From Myxococcales bacterium (GTDB lineage: Bacteria > Myxococcota_A > Polyangia > Fen-1088), in assembly GCA_031423255.1 (NCBI GenBank), contig JANPFD010000236.1:171180-235179 (forward strand): a stretch of DNA of 64,000 nucleotides, given 5' to 3'. Position 1 is the first letter of the stretch. Each line of letters starts with the position of its first letter. Positions 18,503 through 36,030 of the stretch are shown here, one piece after another. The notes beneath the pieces were generated by a model. That model did not search any database, had not been told where the DNA came from, and saw nothing but the letters and a program-made list of their open reading frames with translations. A program made the position numbers and the translations under genes.

Positions 18503-19392
<890 letters not shown>

Positions 19393-19404
19393 GGTAGCGC
19401 GCGG

Positions 19405-19992
19405 CTACTGCGTGATCTTTCGTTTGTCCTGTTCCACCTTGCGCTGCAAGTGGTCCAGGACCGGCTGGGCCTGCTTGAGGCGCCCGGCCAGGCTCTTCTC
19501 GGTGATCGGGTACTCGGTGCCGAACCGCAGCCCTTCGTCGTAAAGGAAGGTACCGACCTCCTCGTCATCCACGAACTGGGGGATCTTCTTCCGCGCGTAG
19601 ACCGCCTTGCGCAGCGTCGGCCACTTTGCGTCGACCCAGGCGATGATGTCGGGGCCGATGGCCTTGCCGAACACCGCCAGTTCCTCGTCGAGCCGGCTGT
19701 AGTTCTCGGCGAAACGGTCGCGGAACGCCGTCGCGGTCTCGCCGCCCTCGCTCGCGATCTTGCGCAGCGCCAGGCGGAACAGGATCGCGTCCTCGGCGTA
19801 TCGGATGGACGGCTCCACGTTGCCGTCCTTGGGCGAGATGATGTGCACCACCGCAGCGGCGGCCATCTCGCGGAGGTCGTGCTCCAGATCCGGCTCGGCC
19901 ACGGCCTCGAGCAGCACCTTGACATCGAATGGCAGCGACACCAGCGCCTTGGCGAGCGTGTCGAGGAAGGTCCGTTCAGTCTCCTTTTCCAT
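19405..19992 (-). CDS. Conserved hypothetical protein (195 aa, acidic, predicted helical)
   Basis: ATG at 19992 (MEKETERTFLD...). The longer ORF-track extension to 20733 overlaps the M14 peptidase gene on the same strand and was rejected. Confidence 0.5.
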   Translation of the reverse strand: MEKETERTFLDTLAKALVSLPFDVKVLLEAVAEPDLEHDLREMAAAAVVHIISPKDGNVEPSIRYAEDAILFRLALRKIASEGGETATAFRDRFAENYSRLDEELAVFGKAIGPDIIAWVDAKWPTLRKAVYARKKIPQFVDDEEVGTFLYDEGLRFGTEYPITEKSLAGRLKQAQPVLDHLQRKVEQDKRKITQ

Positions 19993-20009
19993 GGTTGGTC
20001 CGTCGGATA

Positions 20010-20690
20010 CTACCTGATTCTTTCGACTTGGATAGCCGTTTGCAGCGCGGCGCGGGCCTGCGCCGCGAACGTGGAATAAGGCCCCGGAGGCAGTTCCAGC
20101 GTCAACACCGGCAGCCCGCGGTCGTGGCCCAGCCAGCTTCCGAACGACCCTGGCGTCGGGTATCCGATGTCGGCCTGCGCGGGCCATCCGCACGCTGCCG
20201 CCACGGCGCGTGCCCAGCGCTCGGCGGGCCCGTCGTAGTTGACGCACGCGAACGGCGCATGCACCGCCACGACTCCCTCGCAGCCGAGGCGCTCGACCAG
20301 CGCGGCAAGCACATGCGTCTCGGGTTCGGACAGCGGCGACGGCCCGGGAAAATAACCGGCGTTGTGGGTGGTGGTGAAGTTCGCGGCGGGGAAATTGCGG
20401 TTGAGGTCCACGTCGCGCGCCGAATTCTTGATGCCGGCGGCCAGGCCGTCGGGGTTCAACGCCGGCAGCACCCAGACGCACCCCGTGGGTGGGTTGTCGC
20501 GCAGGTACGTGCACAGCTCGACGGCGGCCTCGACGCTGCTGGGTTCGTTGCCATGCATGCCGCCCACGACCAATCGGGATGGCGCCGTCGTGGGGCCGAA
20601 GACGGTGGCGCGTATCGGTCGACCTTCCGTCGAGCGCCCGATCTCGGGCAGCCCGAGCACCTCGACGAGAGTCACCACGTCTGCCGGCAC
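20010..20690 (-). CDS. M14-family zinc carboxypeptidase-like protein (MpaA / succinylglutamate desuccinylase-aspartoacylase superfamily)
   Basis: GGMHGNEPSS zinc-binding motif and the expected size. It starts with GTG at 20690. Confidence 0.7.
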   Translation of the reverse strand: MPADVVTLVEVLGLPEIGRSTEGRPIRATVFGPTTAPSRLVVGGMHGNEPSSVEAAVELCTYLRDNPPTGCVWVLPALNPDGLAAGIKNSARDVDLNRNFPAANFTTTHNAGYFPGPSPLSEPETHVLAALVERLGCEGVVAVHAPFACVNYDGPAERWARAVAAACGWPAQADIGYPTPGSFGSWLGHDRGLPVLTLELPPGPYSTFAAQARAALQTAIQVERIR

Positions 20691-20707
20691 GGAGGTATTC
20701 TACCGCC

Positions 20708-22045
20708 ATGGCCACGACCCTGGGCGCCGCCAAGGCGCAGGCGCGACGACTGCTCGAGGAAGGTGACTACGCGCGCGCGCTGCGGGCCTACGACCAGATC
20801 CTAACCGCGGTGCCGCTCGACTACGAGGTGCGCTTCCGCGTCGCCGACGTGCTGGCGAAGGTGGGCATGGCCGCCGAGGCTGCCGAGGTTTATCGGGCCG
20901 TCGCCATGCACGACATCGGCAGCGGTCACCCCTTGCCCGCGATCGTCGCCTGCCAGGCACTCGAAGCCCTGGGCGAAAACGCGGACGACGTGCGCAAGCA
21001 ACTGGCGACGACGTACGCCTCGGGATCGCCACAACTGGCGCGGGTCGCCGTGCGCGAGGCGCCCGTGGATCCGAAGACGGCAGTGCCGCCGGCGGACCTG
21101 GCGACGACCGAGCCACTCGACCGCGTCGTGGAGCGGGCCCGCAAGCGCGCGCTCGACCTGTCGGCGTTCGCAGGTGACAAGCAGCAACTGCATCCGCTGC
21201 CGTTCTTCTCGGAGCTTGCCCACGACTCGTTCCTGGCAGTGGTGAGGTCGCTGCAGATCCGGCGTCTCGGCGACGGCGATCTGGTGATCCGCCAGGGCGA
21301 CCCCGGACGCGCGCTGTACCTGGTTGCCGCCGGCGAACTGCGCGTGTTCGTGACGGGAGACAAGGGCGAAAAGGAGATCGCGCGTCTCTACGAGAACACG
21401 CTCTTCGGCGAGATGGCGCTCATCACCGACCAGCCACGCAGCGCATCGGTGGCCGTGGTGGGGGAGGCCGACGTCATCGAGGTGAGCCGCGAGGCGCTGG
21501 ACCGGGTGACGGCGACGATCCCCGCCATCGCCGAGGTGCTCGACAGGTTCACGCGCGAGCGGTTGATCCGCAACCTGCTGCAGACCTCGCCCCTGTTCGC
21601 GCCGTTCACGCCAGGGCAGCAGTCGGACCTGCTCCGCCGCTTCGAGGGGCACGAGGTCGAGGCCGGCGCCGAGGTGATCAAGCAAGGACAGCCCGGCATC
21701 GGGTTGTTCGTGGTGCTGTCGGGCGCACTGGAGGTCACGGCGCACAAGGGAAATGACCAGGCGCCCGTCGAACTCGCGGTGCTACGCGCCGGGGACATCT
21801 TCGGCGAGATGTCGCTGGTCAGCCAGCAGCCCACCTCGGCCACCGTCCGCGCCCGATCGAAGTCCGCGCTGCTGTTCCTGGCGCGCACCTACGTCGAGCG
21901 GCTGGCCGCCGGCATCCCGGCAGTGGCGGCCTTTTTCGAGGACGTGGCCCTGCGACGCGCCCGCGACAACAGTGTGAGGCTGGCACGCCTGGGCGGCCCC
22001 CCGGAGCCGATCGAGCTCGATGATGCCGACGTCTTGCTTCTGTAA
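20708..22045 (+). CDS. Tandem cyclic-nucleotide-binding (CAP_ED) domain protein with an N-terminal TPR-like region
   Basis: Two cNMP-binding signatures (FGEMALI..RSASV and FGEMSLV..TSATV). Confidence 0.75.
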   Translation: MATTLGAAKAQARRLLEEGDYARALRAYDQILTAVPLDYEVRFRVADVLAKVGMAAEAAEVYRAVAMHDIGSGHPLPAIVACQALEALGENADDVRKQLATTYASGSPQLARVAVREAPVDPKTAVPPADLATTEPLDRVVERARKRALDLSAFAGDKQQLHPLPFFSELAHDSFLAVVRSLQIRRLGDGDLVIRQGDPGRALYLVAAGELRVFVTGDKGEKEIARLYENTLFGEMALITDQPRSASVAVVGEADVIEVSREALDRVTATIPAIAEVLDRFTRERLIRNLLQTSPLFAPFTPGQQSDLLRRFEGHEVEAGAEVIKQGQPGIGLFVVLSGALEVTAHKGNDQAPVELAVLRAGDIFGEMSLVSQQPTSATVRARSKSALLFLARTYVERLAAGIPAVAAFFEDVALRRARDNSVRLARLGGPPEPIELDDADVLLL

Positions 22046-22083
22046 GGTTTGATTCAACGCGCCGCGGCCGGTATGGTTCCACT

Positions 22084-22998
22084 GTGATGAAGCGCTTGTT
22101 TCTCGTGCTTGCCGCGTTGATCCTTTTCCAGAGCGCCGCGGAGGCTGCGCGGTCGGGCGGTAGCTTCGGCGGCCGCGGGGGGTTCCGCTCGGCGCCGCGA
22201 GGGTCGTATTCGCGGCCCGCTCCCAGCGGCTATGGAAGCCGCGGCCCGAACATCATCTTCTTCCCGGGCTTCGGATGGGGCGGTGGCTACGGTATGGGCG
22301 GCGGCGGCTTCACCACCATGTTGATCCTGGGCGTGCTTGGCGTAGGTCTGGTGATGGCGTTCCGGAGCCAGATCCGCAACCACGCCCTCGGCCGCTCACG
22401 CAATGACTCGGACGAGGCCCCCGTCTGGGATCGCGCCTTCGTCTACAAGGTTCAGCTGGGGCTCGGCCGGTCGGCGCGGCAGATCCAGGAGCGCCTGGCG
22501 CGTTTCGCCGCCGAGGGGGATACCAGCACCGAGGCGGGGCTGACGCAGCTCCTGCAACAGACCTCGCTCGAGCTGCTGCGCGAAAAAGACGCCATCCGCT
22601 ACGCGGCCATCGAGCAGAGCGGCCCGATGAGCATGCAGAACGGCGAGACCAAGCTGAACGGGGCCTCACTGGCCGAGCGGTCGCGGTTCCAGATCGAGCG
22701 CGTGCGGGGCACGGACGGCAAGGTTCACAAATCCGACGTCGTGGCCAAGGAGAGCTCGGAGGCGCTGGAATACGTGGTGGTCACCCTGGTGCTAGCCACC
22801 CGGGAGCCGCTGCGTGACCTGCCGTCAATAACCGAGATGACCGAGCGCGACCAGATGGATGCCGTGCTGGGTCAGCTCGGAGGTGTGCCGCACGACTCGC
22901 TGCTGGGGCTCGAGGTCATCTGGACACCCGCGGACGCGGAGGACAGCCTGACGCAGATGGATCTGATGACGGCGTACCCGCAGATGCGGAGCCTCTAG
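22084..22998 (+). CDS. DUF1517-family secreted/membrane protein
   Basis: Signal peptide, a Gly-rich region, one TM helix, then a conserved C-terminal domain. The architecture matches DUF1517 proteins. Confidence 0.55.
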   Translation: MMKRLFLVLAALILFQSAAEAARSGGSFGGRGGFRSAPRGSYSRPAPSGYGSRGPNIIFFPGFGWGGGYGMGGGGFTTMLILGVLGVGLVMAFRSQIRNHALGRSRNDSDEAPVWDRAFVYKVQLGLGRSARQIQERLARFAAEGDTSTEAGLTQLLQQTSLELLREKDAIRYAAIEQSGPMSMQNGETKLNGASLAERSRFQIERVRGTDGKVHKSDVVAKESSEALEYVVVTLVLATREPLRDLPSITEMTERDQMDAVLGQLGGVPHDSLLGLEVIWTPADAEDSLTQMDLMTAYPQMRSL

Positions 22999-23000
22999 AC

Positions 23001-23234
23001 GTGCCTCCTGCCACGGTGCCGATGTCCCGGCTGCTGATCGACGCGGCCATCTTCGGTCTGGCGGGCATCGCGCTCCTCATCATCGGCTACTACGTCTGGG
23101 AGCTGGTGACCCCCTACAATCTGCGGCGCGAGCTGCACGAGAACAAGAACCTCGCGGTGGCAGTGGTGTGCGCCGCCCTCATCATCGGCATGGCGATAGT
23201 CATCGCCGCTGCACTGATCGCCAGTCGCCGGTAA
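23001..23234 (+). CDS. DUF350-family small membrane protein
   Basis: 77 aa with two TM helices and a central ELHENKNLAVAV motif. It starts 3 nt after the DUF1517 gene. Confidence 0.6.
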   Translation: MPPATVPMSRLLIDAAIFGLAGIALLIIGYYVWELVTPYNLRRELHENKNLAVAVVCAALIIGMAIVIAAALIASRR

Positions 23235-23270
23235 TTTTCTGGTAAGGTCGCCACTCTCCGTCGGCTAACG

Positions 23271-24818
23271 ATGAACAAGCTGGTCATCGAGGATGAAGAA
23301 GGTAAAGCGGTCGCCGTACCGCTGATCCGTGACGAGATCACGATCGGACGTCAGGAAGGGAACACCATCCGCCTGACGGAGCGGAACGTGTCGCGCCGGC
23401 ACGCCCGGTTCCAGCGCCGCGAGGGCGGCCAGTACTTCGTCGAGGACCTGTCGAGTTACACGGGCACCAAGGTCAACGGGTTGCCTATCAACGGCGCCGT
23501 GCCGGTCAAGGAGGGCGACCACGTCTCCATCGGCGACTACAAGCTGTCGATCAAGATAGAGCGTCCCGCGGGGGCCACGCTCGGCCACCAGCAGGCCGCG
23601 GCCTCACCGATCCCGCCCGCGCCCGTCGTGCCCGTCGCTCCCTTCCCCCGTGTGCCGACACCCATGGGCATCCCCGCCATGCCTCCTCCGGTCACACCGG
23701 CCATGGCCGTACCGCCCGTGGCGACGCCGTTGCCCCCCTTGGCACCGGCCGCCGACCCGATCGACGGCGCCCCGACGATCCCTGTGCGCGCCATGGTGGA
23801 GCAAGCACCCGCCGCCAGCGGCCCGCCAGCCAGGCTGGTGGTGATCACCTCGCCCCTGCAGGGCCAGGAGCACCCCCTCGATCGTCCATCGATGGTGATC
23901 GGTCGGACGCCCGAGAACGACATCGTGGTGAACCACAAGTCCATCTCACGCCACCACGCGAAGATCGTGCGTGACGGCGAGCGCTACGTCGTGGTCGACC
24001 TGGAGAGTGCGAACGGCGTCCGCGTCAACGGGGCTCAGTTCGATAGAGTCGATCTGAATCCGGGCGATGTGATCGAACTCGGGCATGTGCGGCTCCGCTT
24101 TTCGTCGGGCGACGACATGGGCTTCGACGGCGATGACTACGCGGCCGGCGGTTCATCGAAGAAGCCGATGGTGATCGGCGGCCTGGTGGTGGCGGTCCTG
24201 GCGGTGGGCGTGGCGGTGTTTGCCTTCTCGGGAAACAAGGCCGCACCACCGGAACCTCCGAAGGTCGCGGCACCCGCCCCCACCCCGCCCGCGCCGACCC
24301 CGCCCACGCCGGAGCCCACGCCGCCCGCGGCCGAGCCACCGCCCTCGGAGCTACCGCCCGTGATTGCCGCGAAACCGCCCGCGCCCGAGCCCGCGCCGGA
24401 GCCGGAGCCCGCCGCCAAGGAACCCCCGCCGGTACGCGAGCGGCCCCGCAGCGAACGCAAGGTGGCTACCGCCGAACCGGCCCCGATCCGCCCGACGCGA
24501 GCACCTGCGCCACGACCGACGGCGGCGCTCGAGCCGGGTCGCGAGCAGGCCGCGCCGGCGGCGGTGGGCGACCCCGAGGCGCTGATGAAAGATGCGCAGG
24601 ACGCCTGGCTCAAGGGCCAGTTCGCGGCCGCGGTCGAGGCAGCGCGCAAGGCCCTGCGGGCGAAGCCCGGGCTGGCGCGGGCCTACCAGATCATCGCGGT
24701 CTGTTCCTGCTCGCTCAAGGATGCGGACACCGCGTCCAAGGCGTACGACCGCCTCGACGACCGGAACAAGCAGATGGTCAAGACCCTCTGCCAGAAGAGC
24801 GGCGTGACGCTGCAGTAG
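23271..24818 (+). CDS. Tandem FHA-domain protein with a TM helix, Pro-rich spacer and C-terminal TPR
   Basis: Two FHA signatures (GR..N.I.L....VSRRHA... and GR....DIVV....ISRHHAKI). Confidence 0.8.
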   Translation: MNKLVIEDEEGKAVAVPLIRDEITIGRQEGNTIRLTERNVSRRHARFQRREGGQYFVEDLSSYTGTKVNGLPINGAVPVKEGDHVSIGDYKLSIKIERPAGATLGHQQAAASPIPPAPVVPVAPFPRVPTPMGIPAMPPPVTPAMAVPPVATPLPPLAPAADPIDGAPTIPVRAMVEQAPAASGPPARLVVITSPLQGQEHPLDRPSMVIGRTPENDIVVNHKSISRHHAKIVRDGERYVVVDLESANGVRVNGAQFDRVDLNPGDVIELGHVRLRFSSGDDMGFDGDDYAAGGSSKKPMVIGGLVVAVLAVGVAVFAFSGNKAAPPEPPKVAAPAPTPPAPTPPTPEPTPPAAEPPPSELPPVIAAKPPAPEPAPEPEPAAKEPPPVRERPRSERKVATAEPAPIRPTRAPAPRPTAALEPGREQAAPAAVGDPEALMKDAQDAWLKGQFAAAVEAARKALRAKPGLARAYQIIAVCSCSLKDADTASKAYDRLDDRNKQMVKTLCQKSGVTLQ

Positions 24819-24821
24819 CCG

Positions 24822-25247
24822 CTACTTCTTTTTTTCCAGGTCGACGTAAGCGTTGCCCGGTTGGGCCTGCTTCTCGACCGGCAGGTTCGAATCGGCCCAG
24901 CCGGCGAAGGCCACCCGGCCCATCGGATCGCGCTCGCCGTGGAAACCGCCACGCACATCGACGATCTGCGTGTAGCCGGCCGCCTCGAGGAACGCGGACG
25001 CCTGCGCCGACCGACCGCCCGACTTGCAGCCCACGACGAGCTTCGTGTCCCTGGGAAAATTCGACTCGACGACCCGCTGGAAGTCGGGGTTGGGAGCCAT
25101 GCGTCCCGACTGGGCGTGCAGCAGCGGCACGTTCGCGGCGCCCGCCGGATGGCCTTCGTCGAACTCCGGGATCGACCGCACATCCAGATAGCGCCAGCCC
25201 TGCTTCATCAACACGGCCGCTTCAGCCGATGAAATTCGCTTCGCCAT
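24822..25247 (-). CDS. Rhodanese-domain sulfurtransferase
   Basis: Active-site loop VVGCKSGGRS within a single rhodanese fold. Confidence 0.8.
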   Translation of the reverse strand: MAKRISSAEAAVLMKQGWRYLDVRSIPEFDEGHPAGAANVPLLHAQSGRMAPNPDFQRVVESNFPRDTKLVVGCKSGGRSAQASAFLEAAGYTQIVDVRGGFHGERDPMGRVAFAGWADSNLPVEKQAQPGNAYVDLEKKK

Positions 25248-25283
25248 GGGAGGTCATCTAGCATGAAGAACAGCCGCTGAGGT

Positions 25284-25706
25284 ATGATTCGCGGCCCCAT
25301 GGCGCACGCACCCAAGCACGTACGCGTGGTCGCTGCCGTCATCGAGCGGGACGGCAACTACCTCATCACGCAGCGGAGGCCGTCCGCGGTCCTGGGCGGG
25401 TTGTGGGAGTTCCCGGGCGGCAAGGTGGAGACGAACGAGTCGGACGAGCAGGCGCTGGTAAGGGAGCTCCGCGAACGCGTCGGCGTCGACGTCACCATCA
25501 AGGGCCGCGTCGCCCAGCGCCAGCACACGTACGACGGGTACTCGGTCGAGCTGAGCCTCTACCAGGCGACGATCACACCGGGACAGGAGCCGCACGCTGC
25601 CAAGGTGGCGGACTTCCGCTGGGTGGCCTCGTCGGACTTCGAGAAGTACCCGTTCCCGGCGGCTGATCAGGCGACCATGGATCTGCTCCTCGGGGTCAAG
25701 CGTTAG
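25284..25706 (+). CDS. NUDIX hydrolase (MutT-like)
   Basis: Nudix box GG.WEFPGGKVE..ES...ALVRELRERVGV. Confidence 0.8.
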   Translation: MIRGPMAHAPKHVRVVAAVIERDGNYLITQRRPSAVLGGLWEFPGGKVETNESDEQALVRELRERVGVDVTIKGRVAQRQHTYDGYSVELSLYQATITPGQEPHAAKVADFRWVASSDFEKYPFPAADQATMDLLLGVKR

Positions 25707-25708
25707 TG

Positions 25709-26593
25709 GCGCCAGTCCGGTCCATTCGCTCACCCACCCCCACGTTGAAGTCGCTCGATCCGGCGGCGGCACGCTGGATAGGCGCTCTCATCCGGGTGTC
25801 GGCGGCGCACCCGGCGATGACCCGTATCCTCGACGTCATCGTGAGGTTGCAGGAGCACCCGTACCGCACCTAGTTCGTCGTTCTGGGCGAGCCGGGCACC
25901 GGCAAGGAGGGGCTGGCGCGGGCGCTCCACCAGTTGCTCTCGCCGCGAGGGCCCCTGGTCCGCCTCGACGTGGCTGGCTTTCCCGAGGATGCGGCGCTGG
26001 AGGCGCTGTGCGGGACGCTGAAGGAACCGGGCGCCGCCGAGTCCGCCGACGGCGGCACCCTGGTGATCGAGGAACTGACGGCGATGCCACTGCGCGCCCA
26101 GGAGGCGCTGTTGCGGCTGCTCAAGGCCGGACGTTGCCGCCGGGTCGGCCAGAGCAAGGACCTGCCGCAACGTCTGACCGTGAACGCCATCGCCCTGTCG
26201 GACCACCCGATCGAGCGCGCCGTGACCGAGGGGCGCGTCCGCCACGATCTCTACTACCGCCTGGCGCGCGTGGTGCTGTGGCTGCCGCCGCTGCGCGACC
26301 GCTCCGACGACATCGGCCCGGCGGCGGTCTGGATGGGTAACCGCATCCTGGCCGCCGCGCAGGTGCCGCTGGAAGTGCGCACCACCGAGGACCTGCGCAC
26401 CGCCCCCGAGGCCGAGCGTAGACGGGCCATCGAACTCGACCCGGCTGCGGTGACGGCGCTGCGCGCCCACAGCTGGCCGGGCAACTTCCGCGAACTCGAG
26501 GCCACGCTGGAGCGGGCCCTGCTGCTTTACAGGGCGGGGATGAAGCTGGGCGCGAACGAGATCAAGGCGGCGCTGGAGTCTCCGACCGGTTGA
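25709..26593 (+). pseudogene. Stand-alone sigma54-activator-like AAA+ domain protein (no receiver, no HTH, GAFTGA loop replaced) interrupted by an in-frame TAG at 25871-25873
   Basis: Walker A (FVVLGEPGTGKE), the DLYYRL...LPPLRDRSDDI motif and the C-terminal WPGNFRELE motif are all present. The ESELFGHEKGAFTGA region reads EALCGTLKEPGAAES instead. An in-frame TAG lies between IVRLQEHPYRT and FVVLGEPGTGKE. The ORF-track ORF 25934.. begins at a TTG downstream of the Walker A. Confidence 0.5.
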
Positions 26594-27878
26594 CGGAGGC
26601 CGGATCGAAGCGCACGCCGTGCAGCAACAGCGCCCAACGCAGCAGCTTGCGTCGGGGCTGGGCGTATTCGCAGGCATCCGGTCCAGCCTTGTCTGGCAGC
26701 CCCGTGCTGCCCGGTTTCATGAAGCGCACCAGCCAGTCGCCCGCCGCGCGAGCAGCGGCCTCGACGCTGTCCTCTGGCGCACGGGCAAGAAGCGCGTGTG
26801 CGAGGATCACGTCATTCGCGTGCAGGTGGGCATCGCACGCGGGACGCGCACCGAAGAGACCATCCGCCGTCTGCGCGTGGAGCGCTCGCCCGATCTCTGC
26901 GTTACTGGAGGTCGATTCGGTGCCAGCCAGCGCCAGGGCAGCTTCGATCGGCCGCATGCGCTGACTCGCGCCGGCCTGGCCGCGCACCGCGACCGCCGAC
27001 GCTTGCACGGCCTGTCGCACTCCGTGCAAGCGGGGGGCATAGGTATCCGCGAAGCGGCTGCTCGCCACCGCCTCGAGGGCCACCCTGGCCCACGCGAGCC
27101 AGCGCGCCGTGCAGGCCATGTCCCCCGCTATGACCCATTGCGTGCGCGCACTGGGCGCGGTGGCTTCGATCACCGCCCAGCCCTCGTCCATGCGTGCCTT
27201 GTCGCCCAGGGCAGCGCCTGAAACCAGATTCATCACGCCCGTCGAGTGCTCGACGGCGCAGCCCCCCGCCGGCGTGCGGAGTTCGGGCCTCGGGACGCGC
27301 AACGATGCGACCAGCTCATGGGGCGCACGGCGGAGGACCGCGACCAGATTCTCGGTGCGCGGGACGCTCGACGCGACGTCACTGCTCCCGCGTGGTTCCG
27401 GAAGCGCCACGACCGGGCTCGACGGCTGCGGTGCGGATGGCGGCGCGGGTTCAGGCAAAAAGTGTGGAGGGGCGCCGCCGGTCTGCGAGCGGGGCACCGG
27501 AACCTCGCTCGAGCTGATCTCCCCGTGCGCGCGCTCGTGCGGCTGCCGCGCGGCAATCAGAAGCGCCACCGCGATGGCCACACCTGCGGGAACCGTGACC
27601 AGCAGTGTGCGCCGCAGACGCCGCCGCGGCCGCAAGTGCGTAGGTACGTCGGGAGCTGAGCGCGCCGCCACGATCTCCATGCAGCCGAGGTGGACGTCGA
27701 CGTACTCGAAGTAGAGACGTCGCACCTCGGAATCGTCCGCCACCAAGGAGCGCAGGCGACCTCTCTGCTCGGATGACGCCGTCTCATTGCAGACGGCTTC
27801 GAGCAGCGTCCAGATCTCGATCGAGACCTTCTCGCTCACGCTTGCCCTCCGCTGGTCCCCGTCCGCAGCCGCACACAC
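26562..27878 (-). CDS. Anti-sigma factor-like protein (N-terminal anti-sigma domain, one TM helix, large C-terminal domain of unknown function)
   Basis: It overlaps the 3' end of the ECF sigma gene. The N-terminal LLEAVCNETASSEQRGRLRSLVADDSEVRRLYFEYVDVH resembles anti-sigma N-domains, followed by a TM helix (LLVTVPAGVAIAVALLIAA). The start codon is uncertain. Confidence 0.5.
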   Translation of the reverse strand: MCAAADGDQRRASVSEKVSIEIWTLLEAVCNETASSEQRGRLRSLVADDSEVRRLYFEYVDVHLGCMEIVAARSAPDVPTHLRPRRRLRRTLLVTVPAGVAIAVALLIAARQPHERAHGEISSSEVPVPRSQTGGAPPHFLPEPAPPSAPQPSSPVVALPEPRGSSDVASSVPRTENLVAVLRRAPHELVASLRVPRPELRTPAGGCAVEHSTGVMNLVSGAALGDKARMDEGWAVIEATAPSARTQWVIAGDMACTARWLAWARVALEAVASSRFADTYAPRLHGVRQAVQASAVAVRGQAGASQRMRPIEAALALAGTESTSSNAEIGRALHAQTADGLFGARPACDAHLHANDVILAHALLARAPEDSVEAAARAAGDWLVRFMKPGSTGLPDKAGPDACEYAQPRRKLLRWALLLHGVRFDPASVNRSETPAPP

Positions 27879-28378
27879 TGGTGCAGCTTCCGGCGGATCA
27901 AGTTGAGCTGGTTGTAGAGCGTCTGCACCGCCCGGCCCATCCGCTGGGCGACATCCTTCATGGGCTGTTTGTCACGATAGATGCTGTCGAGAAGCCGACG
28001 CTCGTGATCACCCAGAGTGTCGATGCAGGTATTGAGTGCCGCGAGCCGGGCCTCGTGACGGTCGAGGTCCACGGTTCGTTCCTCCGCGACCCTCCCGAGC
28101 AGGTCGTCATCCAGCCAGAGTCGATCGCGGCCAGCGATGCGGCCGAAGTTCGCCACCTGGCGCCAGGCATATCCACAGGCCCAGGTCCGGAACGACGAGC
28201 GCCTGTCCCAGGTATCGAACTTGCGCCACAACGTCTCGCACGTCCGCTGGAACACGTCCTCGGCGTCCGCTCGACGAGGGAGCAGTGAGAAGATGAAGGC
28301 GAAGACTTGCTGCCGGTGCCGCTGCAACTCGGCCACGAACAGGTCTGTCGCGTCTTCGGTCGGCCGGTCCGTGTCCAC
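27836..28378 (-). CDS. ECF-family RNA polymerase sigma factor (sigma-70 regions 2 and 4)
   Basis: Region 2 (DAEDVFQRTCETLWRKFDTWD...FRTWACGYAWRQV) and region 4 (LDSIYRDKQPMKDVAQRMGRAVQTLYNQLNLIRRKL). It starts with GTG at 28378. Confidence 0.85.
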   Translation of the reverse strand: MDTDRPTEDATDLFVAELQRHRQQVFAFIFSLLPRRADAEDVFQRTCETLWRKFDTWDRRSSFRTWACGYAWRQVANFGRIAGRDRLWLDDDLLGRVAEERTVDLDRHEARLAALNTCIDTLGDHERRLLDSIYRDKQPMKDVAQRMGRAVQTLYNQLNLIRRKLHQCVRLRTGTSGGQA

Positions 28379-28387
28379 GCTTGGTCG

Positions 28388-28413
28388 ATGTACGGGCCCT
28401 GCCCGACTTACCG
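28388..28413 (-). promoter_or_regulatory. Motif copy A: CGGTAAGTC-N11-GTACAT (read on the minus strand), ending 9 nt upstream of the ECF sigma start codon; candidate ECF-type promoter/operator
   Basis: Plus strand reads ATGTAC-N11-GACTTACCG at 28388-28413, with the same 17-nt internal spacing as copies B and C. Confidence 0.45.
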
Positions 28414-29118
28414 AACATCGGCGGATTCGCCTGAAGCCCCGAGCGGTGTCGACGCGACGCGTCCAAGCCCCGTCGCGATACTGGCCGCCACCTGCTTGGC
28501 CAGGACGCGCGAGCCCTCGGGCGTGAAGTGGACGTTCACGGGTATCTGGATCTCTTTCAATCTGGGCAGGGCATAGCTGTAGAGATCATCGATGGGAACT
28601 CGATTCTCGAGCATGACCTTCTTCGCCGTCGCGTTGTAGGGGATGACGTCGGCGCTTCGTCGCGCCTTGACGTCGCCGGCAGGCACAGGAGTCGTGCTGC
28701 ACCAGATCAACCGAGCTCGCGTCTTCTCGAGCGTCGTCACGAGCGCCCTCAGATTCTTCTCGTAGTCCCCGAGGGACACCTGGTGGTTTCCGTCGTCCAT
28801 GACCCTGATGTCGTGAAGACCCCAGTTGAAATGGATCACGTCCCACTTGCCGTTTCCGACCCATTCCTCGAGGTGAGTCAATCCGTTGACGGTCGGCCCT
28901 CCGTTCGCTGGAATCCGGTGGACGTTGGCCCTTTCCTTCAGGAGTTCGCGCACCGCAACCGTGTACCCGATGGAGATGGAGTCTCCGATGAGCAGGACGC
29001 GGGGGAGCTTCGGATCGTCGATGACGGGAGCGTAGGCGGCCGCCTTGTCGGTCTTGCTGGCGGCCTGGGCGACGCCGAGCATCGCGACGCATACAGCAGC
29101 GCAAACAGGAATTTTCAT
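28408..29118 (-). CDS. SGNH/GDSL-family hydrolase (secreted)
   Basis: Signal peptide MKIPVCAAVCVAMLGVAQAAS, GDS block LLIGDSIS, and a WGLHD block. ATG at 29118; the upstream ORF-track extension was rejected. Confidence 0.75.
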   Translation of the reverse strand: MKIPVCAAVCVAMLGVAQAASKTDKAAAYAPVIDDPKLPRVLLIGDSISIGYTVAVRELLKERANVHRIPANGGPTVNGLTHLEEWVGNGKWDVIHFNWGLHDIRVMDDGNHQVSLGDYEKNLRALVTTLEKTRARLIWCSTTPVPAGDVKARRSADVIPYNATAKKVMLENRVPIDDLYSYALPRLKEIQIPVNVHFTPEGSRVLAKQVAASIATGLGRVASTPLGASGESADVR

Positions 29119-29127
29119 CTCGGGTTG

Positions 29128-29153
29128 ATGTACAGCCCTGCGCGGACTTACCG
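29128..29153 (-). promoter_or_regulatory. Motif copy B: CGGTAAGTC-N11-GTACAT (minus strand), ending 9 nt upstream of the SGNH hydrolase start codon
   Basis: Plus strand reads ATGTAC AGCCCTGCGCG GACTTACCG. Confidence 0.45.
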
Positions 29154-29172
29154 ACTGCGGGGAACTGACCGC

Positions 29173-29198
29173 CGGTAAGTCTCCCTGGGGTTGTACAT
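29173..29198 (+). promoter_or_regulatory. Motif copy C: CGGTAAGTC-N11-GTACAT (plus strand), 23 nt upstream of the DUF1592 gene start, followed by a GGAGG ribosome-binding site
   Basis: CGGTAAGTC TCCCTGGGGTT GTACAT, in inverted orientation relative to copy B within the same divergent intergenic region. Confidence 0.45.
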
Positions 29199-29221
29199 GA
29201 AGCAATGGACCGCCCCGGAGG

Positions 29222-30895
29222 ATGCTCATGGTTTCATCGACTGTCCGTTACGCGACCGCGGCTTCCGGCCTGATTCTGCTGACGCTGGGCGGTTGCACCG
29301 GCGACATTGGCCCCGCCACGGAGGCCGACCCACCGGGCGGAACGCCGACCCGGTCTGACGAGCCCCCATCGACGAATGCCGATCTCGCCCCGGCCCGCGC
29401 GCGCCGCCTGGCCATTGCCGAGATCCGGAACACCGTCGCGGACATGCTGTTCGCCGGCGCTCTTGGGCGTGTACCCCCGCTGCCGCCGCCCACGAATGAC
29501 GGGTTCGACAACGACACGGCGTTGCTCGGAATGGACATCGGGTTCGTGGAAACGATGAGCGTCTTCGCCGAAGCGACGGCGAACGAGGTGCTGAAGGATC
29601 TCACCCGACTCGCGCCCTGTGATGACCTGCGCATGGTGTCGGGCTGTGGTTCACGGTTCATCGCTACCCACGCGCCACGGCTGTATCGCCGACCAATCGA
29701 ACCCGCCGAGTCGCAGCGCCTGCTGGTTCTGTTCAACGCCGCGCTCGGCTCGGGCACCTACGAGCAGGCAGTGGCGTCGCTGATCCAGATGATGCTGCTC
29801 TCGCCGCAGTTTCTTTACCGCACCGAGCTGGGGTCGCTCCGGGACGCTGCGGGCGTGGTCACCCTGACGTCGTACGAGCGGGCCTCGGCGCTGTCGTACG
29901 GCCTGTGGCGGACGGGGCCCGACGCTCAGTTGCTCGCGGCCGCCCAGACGGCGGCGCTGGACGGCGAGACCGGCCTGCGCACCCAGGTTCTCCGGATGCT
30001 CGATGATCCACGCGCTCGCCCCGCGCTGCGGTCGTTCGTCGTGCAGTGGCTACAGCTGCACCCCATGGACGTCTCGAAGTCCGACCCCGTGTACACGGGC
30101 TCGCTCGCTCGCGCGATGCAGGTCGAGTCCGAGCGTTTCGTCGACGAGGCGCTCTGGGGCACGAACGCAGGGCTAGGAGCGCTCCTCACGTCGACGCGGT
30201 CGTTTGTAAACGGAGAGCTTGCCCGGCTCTATGGCCTGGATGTCTCCTCGACGACGCCGGTCGCCGTCTCGGTTCCCGTCGAACAGCAGCGAGGAGGTGT
30301 CATGGGCCTCCCGGCATTCGTCGCCTCGCACACGCCTCGCGACGCGTTCAGCCCGATCGAGCTTGCCGTCATCGTTCGCGTGCAGATGCTCTGCGCGACT
30401 CTGCCGACGCCTCCCGCCGATGTCCCCGACCCGTCGACCAACGCGAGGATGTCGACCCGCCAGCGGTTCGACCGCCATCGCGCGGATCCCGCCTGCGCCG
30501 GCTGCCACACGCTGCTCGATCCCGTCGGCTTTGCGTTCGAGCGGTTCGGCACGACGGGGCAGTATCGCCTGATCGAGCAACCTTCGGGCGCGATGCTGAC
30601 CGGCGAGGGGCGCCTGACTGCGACGGACGTCGACGGTCCGATCGTGGGCCCCGCCCAGCTCGGACAACGCCTGGCCGAAAGCAAGCAGGCTCGCTCGTGC
30701 GCGGCCGCGCAGACGCTGCGCTACCTGCTGGGCCGACCAACGTCCGTGCCCTCACAACGGACCACCGCCGACGAGCGGACCCTGACGGCAGTGACGGAGA
30801 CGACGTTCGCCGGCGGCGACTTCAAGAAGCTGATGGCGGCACTGGTGCTCTCGGATTCATTCCTGCGCCGCGATGGTTCCCGCTTGCCCAACTGA
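29222..30895 (+). CDS. DUF1592/DUF1588-family lipoprotein (Planctomycete-type PSD-domain protein family)
   Basis: Lipoprotein signal (LLTLGGC). The conserved C-terminal region has a CAGCH motif, which is typical of the DUF1592/1588/1585 family that pairs with DUF1552. Confidence 0.65.
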   Translation: MLMVSSTVRYATAASGLILLTLGGCTGDIGPATEADPPGGTPTRSDEPPSTNADLAPARARRLAIAEIRNTVADMLFAGALGRVPPLPPPTNDGFDNDTALLGMDIGFVETMSVFAEATANEVLKDLTRLAPCDDLRMVSGCGSRFIATHAPRLYRRPIEPAESQRLLVLFNAALGSGTYEQAVASLIQMMLLSPQFLYRTELGSLRDAAGVVTLTSYERASALSYGLWRTGPDAQLLAAAQTAALDGETGLRTQVLRMLDDPRARPALRSFVVQWLQLHPMDVSKSDPVYTGSLARAMQVESERFVDEALWGTNAGLGALLTSTRSFVNGELARLYGLDVSSTTPVAVSVPVEQQRGGVMGLPAFVASHTPRDAFSPIELAVIVRVQMLCATLPTPPADVPDPSTNARMSTRQRFDRHRADPACAGCHTLLDPVGFAFERFGTTGQYRLIEQPSGAMLTGEGRLTATDVDGPIVGPAQLGQRLAESKQARSCAAAQTLRYLLGRPTSVPSQRTTADERTLTAVTETTFAGGDFKKLMAALVLSDSFLRRDGSRLPN

Positions 30896-30907
30896 CAGGA
30901 GGTCCCG

Positions 30908-32290
30908 ATGAGCTCGCGTATCCGCTCCCGACGTCAGCTTCTGCAGACTTTGACCATCGGCACCGGCGTCGCGGCGTTCGCCCCCGCTTTGCGGCCATGG
31001 CGCGTGCGCGAAGCCTACGCGCAGCCGCCATCGGGGCCGCCGAAGCGGATCGTGTTCGTGTTCTTCCCCCACGGGTGGCCGGACCCCACGGACATCGCGA
31101 CGCCCGGCGTGTCGGCCACGGATTTCAAGCTGGGCGCCATCGCCCAGCCGCTCGAGCGGCATAGACGCGATCTGGTCATCCTGGACAACATGGAGTTCAA
31201 GCGCCCCGCCGACCAGGGTTTCCAGCACGGTGTCGGCCGGTGCATGCTGTGGACGGGACGACCGACGCTGGCGACGGACCCGGGGGCGGCCGCGAAGGGG
31301 ATCTCGCTCGACCAGTACCTGGGCAAGGTGGTGGGGACCAAGGTCACCCCTGGCCTTCCTCTCCTCAACCAGCGGCTCTATGACCGGGTCGGGCAGTTGC
31401 TCGAGTGCTCGTACAACGAGAGCGGGGGCGTCGTTCCCGCCAACGCGAACCCGCACGACGTCTACAACAGCGTGTTTCGCAACCTCGTCGTGGGAGGCCC
31501 ACCCAAGAGCGACCCCGTGGCAGACGCCGCGAGCGCACGCAAGAAGTCCGTCCTCGATGCGGTGGCGGCCGAGGTGAATCTCTTTCGCAAGCGTCTTGGA
31601 CCCGAGGATCGGATCCGCGCCGACGCCCAGCTCGAGGCCATCGCCTCGATGGAGGCCAAGGTCGCCGGGCTGCAGGCGCGAGGCGCGTCGTGCAGCAAGC
31701 CGCTGGACAACCTGGCCGTGCCGGTTCCGGATCCGTCGACCCGATCACTGCCTGCCCGGGCCGACCTTCAACTGTCGCTCTTGACCGCGGCCTTCGCCTG
31801 CGATCTCACACGAATCGCCAGCTACCAGGTCATGGGCGGCCAGAACCTTCCGTGCAACTTTTCGCCGGTCTCGAACTCGGCCAACTGGCACAGCCTGTCC
31901 CACGGTGGGAACGACAATTACGCGTCCTTCAGGAACGCCCAGCGCTGGGTATTCTCGCTGGTTGCCGACCTGGCGGATCGTCTGAAGGCCATCCCCGAGG
32001 GCGCAGGGACGATGCTCGACAACACCATCATCGCCATGGGCAGCGAGATCGGACCGCGCCATGTCCTGCACGGCCTGTTCCTGATGAGTCTGGGCGGCAA
32101 GAATCTCGGCATCAGGGTCGGCCAGCACCTGCGCTTTGGTGACGTGCGTGCGTTCGGTCGCGGCCAATCGCACAACCCGTGGCTGGTGTCCCTCATGAAC
32201 GCGATGGGGGTCCCGGGGGATACCTTCGGCGACACCACGGCGCTGGCCGGGCGAGGCTCGCTGCCGGGGTACTGGAGCGCGCCGGCGTGA
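30908..32290 (+). CDS. DUF1552 (HXXSHH-family) protein with a twin-arginine signal
   Basis: Tat-like N-terminus (SRRQLLQTLTIGTGVAAFA), an HSLSHG motif (NWHSLSHGGN), and a position immediately after a DUF1592 gene. Confidence 0.7.
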   Translation: MSSRIRSRRQLLQTLTIGTGVAAFAPALRPWRVREAYAQPPSGPPKRIVFVFFPHGWPDPTDIATPGVSATDFKLGAIAQPLERHRRDLVILDNMEFKRPADQGFQHGVGRCMLWTGRPTLATDPGAAAKGISLDQYLGKVVGTKVTPGLPLLNQRLYDRVGQLLECSYNESGGVVPANANPHDVYNSVFRNLVVGGPPKSDPVADAASARKKSVLDAVAAEVNLFRKRLGPEDRIRADAQLEAIASMEAKVAGLQARGASCSKPLDNLAVPVPDPSTRSLPARADLQLSLLTAAFACDLTRIASYQVMGGQNLPCNFSPVSNSANWHSLSHGGNDNYASFRNAQRWVFSLVADLADRLKAIPEGAGTMLDNTIIAMGSEIGPRHVLHGLFLMSLGGKNLGIRVGQHLRFGDVRAFGRGQSHNPWLVSLMNAMGVPGDTFGDTTALAGRGSLPGYWSAPA

Positions 32291-33778
32291 CGGCGGCATC
32301 GCTGTGTCTCGTCGCCGCGGCGCAGGTGGTCGCGGCCATAGCCGATCCGTCGCCTCGCCCGAACGTGATCTTCATTGCGCGCACACCCCATCTCGATGCC
32401 CTGGCGGCGCGAAGCCTGCGCTTCGACCACGCGTACGCGCAGTATCCGGTATGCAATCCCTCGCGTATCTCGATGCTGACGGGACTGCGGCCCGAGACTT
32501 TCCAGATCTACGACAACCGCACACCGTACCGCGCCAAGATCCCCGAGGCGCTGACGTTGCCGCGCCACTTCCGCGACGGCGGCTACCACACGGTGAAGGT
32601 GGGCAAAGTTTTTCACGACGGGCCAGCGTTCGACGACCCGCGCGCCTGGAACGAAGCTCTGGTTCCGGACGGAGCGCCGGGCTACGAAAAAGGCGAGGGG
32701 CGGCGCATGCTCGAATCCGAGCGGCTGGTGTCGATGGGTGGCATCGGAAGCGCCGGACGAGGCACAGCCGGACGGTGAGACGGCGACCGAGGCCATCCGG
32801 ATCCTCGAGCAAAGCAAGCCGGACAAGAAGCCGCTGTTCCTGGCGCTGGGATTCCGGCGGCCGCACGACCCATTCATCGCGCCCCAGGCGTACTTCGATC
32901 TCTACCCGCTCGAGCGCTTCAACCCATTGTCCCAGACGCGCGGGCCGACCGGCGATCCGCCCCCGGCGATCGAGCATGACGACCGGTTCCCGTTCGACGA
33001 TCGGGACAGGCGTGAGTTCTTGCGTGCTTACTACGCGGGCGTCTCGATGACCGACGCCCAGATCGGACGCGTGATGCGCGCACTCGATCGCCTTGGGATG
33101 GCGGAGGAGACCATCGTCGTCGTCACCAGTGACCACGGGTACCACCTGGGTGAGCGCGGCTGGTGGAACAAGGTGACGCTCTTCGAGCTCTCCACCCGCG
33201 TCCCGCTGATCGTCCGGGCTCCGGGGATGAAAACCGCCGGCCGTACCAGCGTGCGTCTGGTCGAACTCGTGGACCTGTTCCCGACGCTGGCGGACCTGGC
33301 AGGCGTGGCCATCCCGCCGAGCCTCGAGGGACGAAGCTTCCGGCCGTTACTCGCCGATCCGGACCGGCCGTGGAAGGCGGCGGCGCTGACCGTCGTGGCC
33401 CGCGGCTCGATCCTCGGCCGCACCGTCCGTACCGAGCAGCATCGATACACCGAGTGGGATGGCGGACGCGCCGGCCGCGAGCTCTATGACCACGGTCGCG
33501 ATCCGGGCGAGCACCGGAACCTGGCGGCGGATCGTGGACAGGCGGGAACCGTGCGCGCGTTGCACAGCCTACTGAACTCCGGACCCGGGGCTACCGAAAA
33601 AACGTCGTGTGCAGTACCTCCGACAGGAGGTTGCACAGGGCGTGGAACACCGCTCCCGGCGCGATCGAACCCGTACGCGCGCGCATCCACCCGAAGACCA
33701 GCGCCGGAAAGAACACCACGATGCGCGCTGGATCGAAGTCGACCAGCACGTGCCCCAGCGCGAACAACAGGCTGGTGA
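32287..33778 (+). pseudogene. Sulfatase (iduronate-2-sulfatase/arylsulfatase-like) with an in-frame deletion of the metal-binding DD region and a frameshift near 32735
   Basis: The N-terminal frame has a signal peptide, RPNVIFIA-RTPHLDALA (about 15 residues including the VDD...G loop are missing relative to canonical sulfatases), the CNPSR formylglycine motif and GKVFHDG. The reading frame switches to +1 around 32735, and the C-terminal part ([33 protein letters not shown]) continues from there. Confidence 0.6.
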
Positions 33779-34316
33779 CGATGAGCGGGCGGCCCACCAG
33801 CGCGTCCATGAACCGGCGCCTGGACGGCCAGCGCTCCTCGAAACGGGCCCAGAGATAGCCGCGGAAAAACAGCTCCTCCGGGATGGCCACCACCACCAGT
33901 TGCGACGCCGCCAGGAGGGCGAAGTCCGGCGGGAGCCGCAACGACGCGCCGTCGAGGCCGGTCCAGCCGGGACACAGCGGCGCGAACAGGTTCGCCCAGA
34001 CCTGCAGCAGCGGCGCCGTCGAAGCGCAGACCATGCCGTAGAACGCCAGGAACGACAGGAAGAAGCAGGGCCAGGTGAGCGCCAGCGCCGAGGCGGTGAT
34101 CCTCAGGTTCAACCGGAGCGGGTCGATGCGGAGGCCGGCCGCGCGGTAATCGAATCGGCGCCCCGACATACGGGCGGCCAGCGCGGGCGCGTACAGGAAG
34201 ATCACCGCGAGGGCTCCATGCAGGTTCGCGTGGACGAACGGCACCGCCTGGCCGATCCAATACAGCGCCGAACTGAGGGCCGTGGCGACGAGGAACGCCG
34301 CGAGCGGTTCGATCAC
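33591..34316 (-). CDS. CPBP-family intramembrane glutamic metalloprotease (CAAX protease / Abi family)
   Basis: EELFFRG and FALGH motifs across several TM helices. Confidence 0.75.
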
Positions 34317-34329
34317 CGCCGTCTTCCTG

Positions 34330-34581
34330 CTAGAAGAGGCGACTGAGGTCGTCGAGGGCGCGGCTGGCGTGGCGGGCGGCCCCGGCCAGGCGGTCGGGAG
34401 CCTGGGCGTCGATCCGCGAGGCCTTCAGGCCGACGAGGAGGGCGTCCAGCTGCCTCTCGATGGCTGTGATCGCCTCGCGGCTGCGCCGGAGCGCGGTCAC
34501 GGCACGGGGCATCGTCAGACGGGACTCGGCCGGGGGCGCTGGACACCGCTTCCGCGGAATCGAACGTCGGGCGGGGCGCAT
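34330..34581 (-). CDS. Small hypothetical protein (about 60-83 aa, predicted helical) immediately upstream of the CPBP protease
   Basis: ORF in an operon-like position between two minus-strand genes. Its composition is typical of GC-rich DNA, so coding status is uncertain. Confidence 0.25.
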   Translation of the reverse strand: MRPARRSIPRKRCPAPPAESRLTMPRAVTALRRSREAITAIERQLDALLVGLKASRIDAQAPDRLAGAARHASRALDDLSRLF

Positions 34582-34620
34582 GACCCAAGTTTCCGGTGGG
34601 CATGCGTTCTGTCAACTTTC

Positions 34621-36027
34621 TCAACCAAGCAGGTGGTGCGCCAGGGGGTCCACCACCACCTCGTGGCCAAGCGCCGTGCGGCCCACCAGCATGGGGCAAC
34701 GCATGTCGCCCCGGTCCGTCAGCGTCACGCGGATGCGCTTGCGGAGCGGCCCCAGTTCGAGTGTGGTCTCGATGACCGGGCGCCGCTCGGTGCGACCCGA
34801 GGTGTCCCTCACCTCGATGAACTCCTTGACCGGGACGCGCACGCGAAGCCGGCGGCGCGAGGAGCCCCCCACGGCCAGGGTCAGTTCGAGGATGGGGCGG
34901 CGGCTGGGCCCGGGGGCCGTCCCTACCGTGCGGCTGGCGATGACGTGGAGCGCTGAGGTGCGGGCTCCCGTATCGATCTTGGCGGGCACCCGCCCCAGGC
35001 CCAGATCGGGAAGCGAGATCGACTCGAGCCAGCCGACCCGTAACTTGGCTTCCGCCGGCGGGCCAGGCCGAGCTGCCTTAGGGTTCTTTGCGTCGCGCAC
35101 CGCCCCGACGAGAAACAGCACCGCGCCCTTCCGAGTCACCGGGCGATCGGGCGCCTCGAGGACCAGGCCTCGCGCCGGTGCACGCACGGCCACGGCCCGG
35201 CCGGGCAGCGGCCCCTCGATCCGGGCGAGCACGTGACCCTTGCCGACCAGCGCACCAGGCTCGACGGTCTCGACGAGCACACCGTCCGCCGGGGCCAGCA
35301 CGCGGACGAGGTCATGCACCACCGTTCCCGGGGCTCCGGACGCCCGGCCGACGCGCCCGACCAGGCCCGGCAGAACGATCGCCAGCGCGCGGCGACAGGC
35401 GGCCAGCAGGATCTGTCCGGCGCTGCCGACCCCCGAATCACCGCCAGCCACGAGGCCGATGGTGGTCCGGCGGGCCTGGCCGGCGACCGCCACCAGCGAC
35501 CCATCGGCCGCCGGGACGATCGCGCGGGCGCCGCTTGCGACCGCAAGCGCCCTCGCCCGCGTGTCGTCGGGACAGACCCGAGCGTACAGCAGGCAGCGCC
35601 GCCCCGGCAGGGGCGAGCCGAGCACGATGACTGCCTCGGCCCCTACCACCAGATCCGAGTAGAGGGCGAACGCCAACCGCCCGCGCCGCTTGCCTCCGGC
35701 GTCACCCGGCAGTGGCAGCGCTGGCACCACCCTCCCCGGCCGCGTGAACCGATTCCCGGGCCGCAGCACCGGCACCACCACCAGCGTCCCGGTCAGCGCC
35801 GCCGGATCCAGCTCGGCGATCAGCGCCCGCGCCGCCAGCGTGGAGGCCACCTCGCACCCGTGCAGGTTCGCCACCACGGTCACGCGCGGACCGGGCGCCC
35901 GCCCCACCGCCACCCAGGCGCCGACGGCCGTCGCCTCGTCGAGGCCGATGCTCACCACGGCAGCACGGCCCGGAGCGACCTCCACGCCGCCCACCCGCTG
36001 TGCGCGCGGCGCGACCTCGGTCGCCAT
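34621..36027 (-). CDS. Fusion protein: N-terminal succinylglutamate desuccinylase/aspartoacylase-like (AstE_AspA) domain plus C-terminal RimK-associated retropepsin-like domain (DUF785, annotated in databases as putative ATP-dependent zinc protease)
   Basis: The C-terminal LGRVPAKIDTGARTSALHV matches the DUF785 aspartic-protease-like signature. The N-terminal half resembles the AstE/AspA deacylase fold, including VANLHGCE. Confidence 0.6.
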   Translation of the reverse strand: MATEVAPRAQRVGGVEVAPGRAAVVSIGLDEATAVGAWVAVGRAPGPRVTVVANLHGCEVASTLAARALIAELDPAALTGTLVVVPVLRPGNRFTRPGRVVPALPLPGDAGGKRRGRLAFALYSDLVVGAEAVIVLGSPLPGRRCLLYARVCPDDTRARALAVASGARAIVPAADGSLVAVAGQARRTTIGLVAGGDSGVGSAGQILLAACRRALAIVLPGLVGRVGRASGAPGTVVHDLVRVLAPADGVLVETVEPGALVGKGHVLARIEGPLPGRAVAVRAPARGLVLEAPDRPVTRKGAVLFLVGAVRDAKNPKAARPGPPAEAKLRVGWLESISLPDLGLGRVPAKIDTGARTSALHVIASRTVGTAPGPSRRPILELTLAVGGSSRRRLRVRVPVKEFIEVRDTSGRTERRPVIETTLELGPLRKRIRVTLTDRGDMRCPMLVGRTALGHEVVVDPLAHHLLG

Positions 36028-36030
36028 GGG

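Follow-up and report, generated by a model that had tools for sequence, protein, structure and literature searches.

At positions 25871-25873 of a 64,000-nucleotide stretch of Myxococcales bacterium DNA (referred to here as the window), a TAG codon interrupts the reading frame of a gene resembling the AAA+ core of the sigma-54 activators (bEBPs). The question raised by this locus is whether the stop is read through, marks a gene that has lost its function, or is an error in the deposited sequence, and, in each case, what kind of protein the frame would encode. The initial annotation, made from the letters of the window alone, had offered three explanations: a pseudogene of an unusual bEBP-derived protein created by a nonsense mutation, a sequencing error, or a case of readthrough or re-initiation. 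We considered the frame itself, the family to which it belongs, a nearly identical assembly of the same region and the neighbouring genes.

The interrupted reading frame

The features of the gene and of its upstream neighbour are as follows.

25284..25706, + strand: MutT/NudG-like NUDIX hydrolase gene, the upstream partner; Pfam NUDIX_4 (E 2e-26) and NUDIX; TAG stop at 25704-25706
25706..26593, + strand: complete frame of the atypical bEBP-like AAA+ gene; 295 codons, the internal TAG counted; intact in the sister-assembly allele (contig L010)
25706..25873, + strand: N-terminal fragment, 55 codons plus TAG; family-specific N-terminal helix DPAAARWIGALIRVS and first Sigma54_activat helix
25871..25873, + strand: in-frame TAG at a position that is Asn in the family, from family alignments and the DNA of relatives
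25886..25909, + strand: Walker A, GEPGTGKE, four codons 3' of the stop; G, T, G and K invariant in the family
25970..26593, + strand: coding sequence of the source record (P0033), 207 aa from GTG 25970, without Walker A
26000..26044, + strand: L1 loop stub EALCGTLKEPGAAES, replacing SELFGxEKGAFTGAxxxKxGxFExA; about 9 residues deleted, including GAFTGA
26060..26074, + strand: Walker B variant LVIEE (canonical LFLDE); both Glu invariant in 23 members and present in at least 90% of 77
26240..26263, + strand: RHDLYYRL with both conserved arginines (arginine-finger region), from the alignments
26474..26500, + strand: WPGNFRELE, sensor II region in the lid domain, from AAA_lid_14 and the alignments

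A single frame of 295 codons runs on the forward strand from GTG 25706 to TGA 26591-26593 and is interrupted once, by the TAG at 25871-25873. The stop is thus in frame with both ends, and the translation around it (...VRLQEHPYRT, stop, FVVLGEPGTGKEGL...) is as earlier quoted. The gene had been taken to begin at 25709 but more likely starts at GTG 25706, a codon whose first base is the last of the NUDIX gene's TAG stop (TAGTG). This overlap suggests translational coupling, and the AAA+ gene is probably co-translated with the NUDIX gene. The NUDIX gene itself matches the NCBIfam models for Nudix, NudG and MutT below their cut-offs.

With the stop masked, the Pfam profile Sigma54_activat (PF00158) matches residues 34-189 (E 6e-26, 91.5 bits against a cut-off of 20.2), which supplies the domain boundaries for which a profile search had been suggested and places them on either side of the stop. 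AAA_lid_14 follows at residues 236-290 (40.3 bits, cut-off 27), and the protein ends 5 residues past the lid. Since the Sigma54_activat homology begins 22 codons 5' of the stop and crosses it, we are dealing with a genuinely interrupted gene and not with two chance ORFs. The N-terminal fragment is also homologous to the N-termini of the family in the family alignment, and relative to intact orthologues the ORF is disrupted, as a pseudogene would be.

Three in-frame start codons lie 3' of the stop, at TTG 25934, GTG 25970 and ATG 26084. They all fall past Walker A, as the initial annotation had said, although its description of them as near-cognate is inaccurate, TTG and GTG being regular bacterial start codons. 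Together with the 207-aa fragment called in the source annotation, the TTG and the GTG would allow a genuine split gene, in which a 55-aa peptide and a C-terminal fragment re-initiated at TTG 25934 or GTG 25970 are both made. Walker A, however, lies between the stop and every restart and is therefore missing from every possible product, which excludes a functional split gene. No split member occurs among the best 120 of 5,618 matches, and the start-codon listing flagged no SD-like motif before TTG 25934 or GTG 25970. We regard a split gene as very unlikely.

A family of reduced bEBP-type proteins in the Polyangia

A search with the protein returned 5,618 sequences at E 1e-5 or better. The best 120 of these, almost all uninterrupted and about 295-330 aa long, are 57-79% identical to the query, most of them covering 86-100% of it; their sources are metagenomes of soil and sediment, and MAGs that bear the label Polyangia or Myxococcales. 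Among the matches listed, more than 100 Polyangia homologues are uninterrupted. The best match in the GTDB species representatives has 72% identity. Family conservation was read from two alignments, of 23 and 77 members. These homologues mark it as an unexceptional member of a gene family, conserved in the Polyangia, for stand-alone bEBP-type AAA+ proteins of about 300 aa. Calling it an unusual bEBP-derived protein undersold a gene that belongs to the conserved, syntenic core of the Polyangia.

At the site of the TAG the family reads R-T-N. Asparagine is found in at least 90% of the aligned members, and all six relatives that were read as DNA have AAC or AAT, so that the comparison with orthologues proposed at the outset points to Asn as the residue replaced by the stop.

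Walker A, both arginines and WPGNFRELE (the sensor II region) are conserved in both alignments. Walker B reads IEE in place of LDE, and at the sensor I position the family has S-D where bEBPs have T-N, both variants being conserved among its members. The L1 loop is changed as well. Pairwise alignments to NifA (9qq6) and NtrC1 (1ny6) open a gap of 8-9 residues exactly at ESELFGHEKGAFTGA, and the spacing from ELFG/ALCG to GGTL is 12 residues in the family against 21 in NtrC1, from which it follows that the tip of L1, including GAFTGA, has been deleted. The deletion is common to the whole family in the alignments. In the same pairwise alignments the lid is longer than that of NifA and NtrC1 by an insert of about 20 residues. 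HTH, receiver, GAF, PAS and FHA domains were found neither in the query nor in the best 120 of 5,618 homologues, and all scores of NCBIfam equivalog models against the query were far below their cut-offs.

An AlphaFold model of a family member (pLDDT 87, pTM 0.79) has a disordered tail of about 25 residues, a family-specific helix AAARWIGALIRVS and a complete AAA+ fold in which L1 is reduced to a short hairpin. The structures that match the model best are the AAA+ domains of NtrC1, NtrX (5m7p), PspF, FleQ and ZraR, with target-normalised TM-scores of about 0.8-0.85. The original reading of the protein as a stand-alone bEBP-type AAA+ protein without GAFTGA, input domain or HTH is thus borne out by Pfam, the alignments, the model and the fold matches alike.

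The order of a MutT/NudG-like NUDIX gene directly followed by the AAA+ gene is kept in all five relatives that were read with their context, two GTDB genomes (L001 and L002) and three metagenome contigs of up to 596 kb (L011, L012 and L013), whose identity to the query is 59-72%. Where genes had been called, in L011-L013, the two are separated by 1-19 nt. The block conserved in the five relatives consists of a double-FHA protein gene, a rhodanese gene on the opposite strand, the NUDIX gene and the AAA+ gene.

Origin of the stop codon

The 90% cluster of the 207-aa product P0033 has a second member, P0121, which comes from the Logan assembly of run SRR20217180 (contig L010). Contigs of this run were assembled independently of the deposited sequence, and the run may or may not be the read set behind the deposited assembly; a literature search for the run found nothing. 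L010 aligns to window positions 19027-36593 over 17,567 nt with no gaps and five mismatches, all of them at 25842-25880. Four more contigs of the run cover 408-2810, 38123-43977, 49670-53715 and 62101-64000 and add one difference, at 52217. Altogether there are six mismatches and no gaps in 31,771 nt, and by a rough estimate the chance that five of six random differences would fall within 39 nt is about 1e-10. The differences at the AAA+ gene, given as L010 > window, are the following.

25842..25880, no strand assigned: five-transversion cluster relative to sister assembly L010; 5 of the 6 differences in 31,771 nt
25842: A>T, GAG>GTG, Glu>Val
25855: C>G, GAC>GAG, Asp>Glu
25871 and 25873: A>T and T>G, AAT>TAG, Asn>stop; two substitutions in one codon
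25880: C>G, CTT>GTT, Leu>Val

All five changes are transversions and all alter the protein; there are no indels, and the divergence over the 39 nt is about 13%. Where the family is informative, the sister assembly agrees with its consensus (77 of 77 members share the Glu, and at least 90% have the Asn), and the state of the window is therefore derived. Outside the 39-bp patch the AAA+ gene is identical to the intact L010 allele, with no further decay. What the letters of the window alone could not show is that the TAG sits in a cluster of five transversions rather than standing as a lone nonsense mutation. A sense codon at 25871-25873 in independent data had been named at the outset as an outcome that would speak for an assembly error, and this is essentially what the SRR20217180 assembly has, namely AAT.

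The intact allele occupies L010 6680-7567 if the GTG start is taken. In the L010 gene call it starts at an internal ATG (L010 6791, window 25817) and encodes 258 aa (MTRILD...). We consider this call to be misannotated at its 5' end, with the real start at the GTG overlapping the NUDIX stop, because the conserved N-terminal segment LKSLDPAAARWIGALIRVS lies upstream of the ATG and because of the position of the gene in the relatives. The remaining difference, at 52217, is A in the window and C in the SRR20217180 contig; it is synonymous (GGC>GGA) and lies in a periplasmic-binding-protein gene (51774-52751), with the window again having the codon that is atypical for a GC-rich genome.

These comparisons also bear on the possibility that the TAG is decoded, by programmed readthrough, amber suppression or insertion of pyrrolysine, to give a full-length product. 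Such decoding would account for a frame that is open and homologous on both sides of the stop and for the undamaged remainder of the gene. No homologue, however, has a stop at this site, where Asn or its codons prevail, and the near-identical sister assembly has AAT. TAG terminates 21 of the 49 coding-like ORFs in the window, including the NUDIX gene directly upstream, no tRNA gene lies within the window, and the stop came together with three other non-synonymous changes, one of them at an invariant Glu. Decoding of the TAG is, in our judgement, extremely improbable; we exclude recoding and code reassignment here, and the locus should not be counted as a case of stop-codon recoding. The other terminators of the 49 coding-like ORFs are TGA (23) and TAA (5), the share of TAG being unusually high for a GC content of 68%. 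A scan for other in-frame stops based on GC3 only was uninformative, as antisense frames also have high GC3 in sequence of 68% GC; with GC2 added, it returned mostly ordinary adjacent genes. Readthrough is refuted among the explanations first offered and re-initiation would yield a product without Walker A, while the pseudogene and the sequencing error still stand.

By comparison with the sister assembly and the family, the TAG is a private lesion of one assembly and not a programmed signal. The reading that we find most likely, with a confidence of about one half, is that the five-change cluster is a base-calling, consensus or assembly artefact of the deposited contig, in which case the organism would make an intact 295-aa protein. 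We infer a technical rather than a biological origin of the cluster from several features: five transversions stand within 39 nt without an indel, two of them in one codon; the rest of the gene is undecayed and the only independent assembly has the intact allele; both difference events, the cluster and 52217, leave the window with the derived or atypical state; and the family offers over 100 uninterrupted homologues, with block synteny in five relatives. We know of no bacterial replicative or translesion polymerase with such a spectrum and density of changes, while low-quality stretches of reads do give clustered substitutions of this kind. Each of the five changes (A>T, C>G, T>G) belongs to what we take to be the signal-loss type in two-colour Illumina chemistry, which points weakly to an artefact.

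Several observations argue in the other direction. De Bruijn-graph assemblers follow k-mers that are present in the reads, and a path with five errors would normally need the support of more than one read. The isolated SNP elsewhere (52217) suggests that the two assemblies may represent two clones of one population, and since the 31.8 kb compared with the SRR20217180 contigs showed no second cluster of errors, the deposited assembly is not of low quality overall. Gene decay occurs in this genome, moreover, as the window contains a second disrupted gene, a sulfatase gene, that is broken in both assemblies.

The sulfatase gene (32287-33778, + strand) is divided between two ORFs that overlap but lie in different frames. 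Positions 24-99 of the Pfam Sulfatase profile are found in the first (32287-32778), and positions 146-301, together with SGSH_C, in the second (32738-33778); the N-terminal part seems to be without the usual segment between NVIFI and TPHLD. The sequence of 32287-33778 is identical in the independent SRR20217180 contig, and on that ground the gene is probably a real frameshifted pseudogene.

The alternative, to which we assign a probability somewhat below one half, is a real lesion of the AAA+ gene, either a very recent strain-specific null allele or a population variant, in which one event changed five bases in 39 bp; error-prone repair synthesis or import of a very short piece of foreign DNA are possible causes. 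Translation would then end after 55 codons, and since any product begun again at TTG 25934 or GTG 25970 would still lack Walker A, the gene would have lost its function. The stop does stand in the deposited sequence and is reflected in the 207-aa call of the source annotation, substitution errors, nonsense ones included, are rare in short-read assemblies, and the SNP at 52217 makes divergence or heterogeneity between the two assemblies plausible; the broken sulfatase gene and the lack of another error cluster, noted above, would likewise fit a real lesion. Five transversions in 39 bp from a single event would, however, be very unusual as a natural mutation, and the remainder of the gene has not decayed. 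The window holds no template for the derived patch in the form of a direct repeat, an inverted repeat or a paralogue, and a functional orthologue, had it been the donor, would have brought neither Val at an invariant Glu nor a stop at a conserved Asn. A scan of JGI metagenome contigs with a degenerate pattern for either allele gave no matches, so that the derived allele has not been seen independently; neither the 207-aa product P0033 nor the 55-aa N-terminal ORF was found in the gene-position index. All readings other than an artefact and a real null allele are, even taken together, improbable.

We considered further mechanisms by which a patch of this kind might arise. Mutagenesis of the DGR type, template switching at a quasi-palindrome and local gene conversion were rejected as far as a donor within the window is concerned: when 25780-25930 was compared with both strands of the entire window by blastn-short, nothing beyond chance matches of at most 18 nt appeared, and a tblastn search of the window gave no paralogue. 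A typical bEBP paralogue was rejected as the source of a conversion tract too, because NifA is two residues shorter than the family ahead of Walker A and such a tract would leave an indel, which is not seen.

In having one in-frame stop, intact orthologues and a truncated annotated product, the locus resembles other nonsense-interrupted genes of draft genomes and MAGs. It differs from them in that the stop is embedded in a five-transversion cluster, with two changes in its own codon, and in that the remainder of the gene and about 32 kb of sequence hardly differ from an intact sister assembly. In either case the 207-aa annotation is incorrect, as it conceals an intact 295-aa gene behind a local error or represents a fresh pseudogene. 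Given a second assembly, a clustered, all-transversion pattern may serve as a marker by which private lesions can be told apart from true nonsense mutations. Should the patch of five transversions prove real, it would represent a striking case of local hypermutation that knocked out a gene of a natural population in a single event.

Likely mode of action and gene neighbourhood

The GAFTGA motif is needed for contact with sigma-54 (PMC3162934). Several atypical EBPs act independently of sigma-54, among them TyrR, PhhR, DhaR, HupR, Rhodobacter capsulatus NtrC, VpsR, NtrX and Myxococcus xanthus HsfA; these proteins keep a DNA-binding domain and act at sigma-70 promoters (PMC3162934, PMC6158489). 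The family described here likewise has a bEBP-type AAA+ core (PF00158) from which GAFTGA is deleted, the motif being deleted or degenerate in the atypical EBPs. VpsR, like the family, also has a non-canonical Walker B, and NtrX (5m7p) is among the best structural matches of the model. The atypical EBPs, however, bind DNA through a C-terminal domain and have a sensory or receiver domain at the N-terminus, whereas the family has neither and, for lack of both, cannot alone be an enhancer- or operator-binding factor. Of the features that define a bEBP, the family shows the AAA+ core and the lid but not GAFTGA, the HTH or an N-terminal regulatory domain; of those that define a sigma-70-dependent atypical EBP, it shows the core with deleted GAFTGA but not the DNA-binding domain.

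Minimal bEBPs provide a second comparison. PspF has no regulatory domain, and FlgR of Helicobacter, CtcC of Chlamydia and FleT of Rhodobacter sphaeroides have no DNA-binding domain; all four keep GAFTGA and activate the sigma-54 holoenzyme. A reduced, AAA+-centred architecture is common to these proteins and the family, and the AAA+ domains of PspF, NtrC1 and FleQ are among its best sequence and fold matches. The minimal bEBPs retain GAFTGA, whereas the family has lost the loop tip and has EE in Walker B and the lid insertion of about 20 residues. As its members' sequences indicate, the family combines both losses, that of GAFTGA and that of the DNA-binding domain. PexR of M. xanthus was considered as a relative and rejected; it has GAF, GAFTGA and a DNA-binding domain, and its architecture is unrelated.

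The family keeps the motifs for nucleotide binding and for contacts between the subunits of a bEBP ring, while lacking the sigma-54 loop, a DNA-binding domain and a sensor, which suggests a role independent of sigma-54. The most likely mode of action would be that of a nucleotide-dependent, ATP-driven oligomer that acts through protein-protein contacts. The conserved coupling to the NUDIX gene is, in the loci compared, the only clue to a partner. It is tempting to go further and to propose an undescribed class of bEBP-derived AAA+ ATPase, strongly constrained across the Polyangia as the translationally coupled partner of a NUDIX protein and with a role outside enhancer-dependent transcription, perhaps as an ATP-driven remodeller of protein-protein contacts or as a nucleotide-responsive switch tied to the NUDIX enzyme; we offer this tentatively, as a doubtful though possible extension. 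While the stop itself is ordinary, the gene family is a new architectural variant among the atypical EBPs and modestly novel. It provides a natural case of a sigma-54-activator AAA+ core without the features of a transcription activator that is nevertheless conserved and syntenic with a NUDIX gene. Its partner would show how the ATPase ring of the bEBPs can be reused, which makes the family a modest lead rather than a demonstrated discovery.

Two genes 5' of the AAA+ gene, in the window (23271-24818, + strand) and in all relatives examined, lies the gene for the protein with two FHA domains, whose C-terminal half is rich in Pro and Ala. The N-terminal tail of the AAA+ family is disordered and rich in Arg, Ser, Thr and Pro, and a phospho-dependent interaction between the FHA protein and this tail is conceivable.

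Downstream, the AAA+ gene converges with a 438-aa ORF (26562-27878, minus strand), the 3' ends of the two overlapping by 32 nt (26562-26593), and no terminator-like hairpin was found in 24700-26900. This ORF, which has no family match, and an ECF sigma factor gene of the Rhodopirellula/Verrucomicrobium type (TIGR02989; 27836-28378, minus strand) fall outside the conserved block; the 438-aa protein is possibly an anti-sigma factor. Both are part of an extra block of about 7-8 kb (about 26562-33800) that is present in the window and in L010 and absent from L011 and L012, and that lies between the AAA+ gene and genes for Rce1-like, RimB-like and PilZ proteins. The block also contains genes for a GDSL lipase and for PSD/PSCyt-domain and HXXSHH (planctomycete-type) proteins as well as the broken sulfatase gene, and looks like a lineage-specific insertion.
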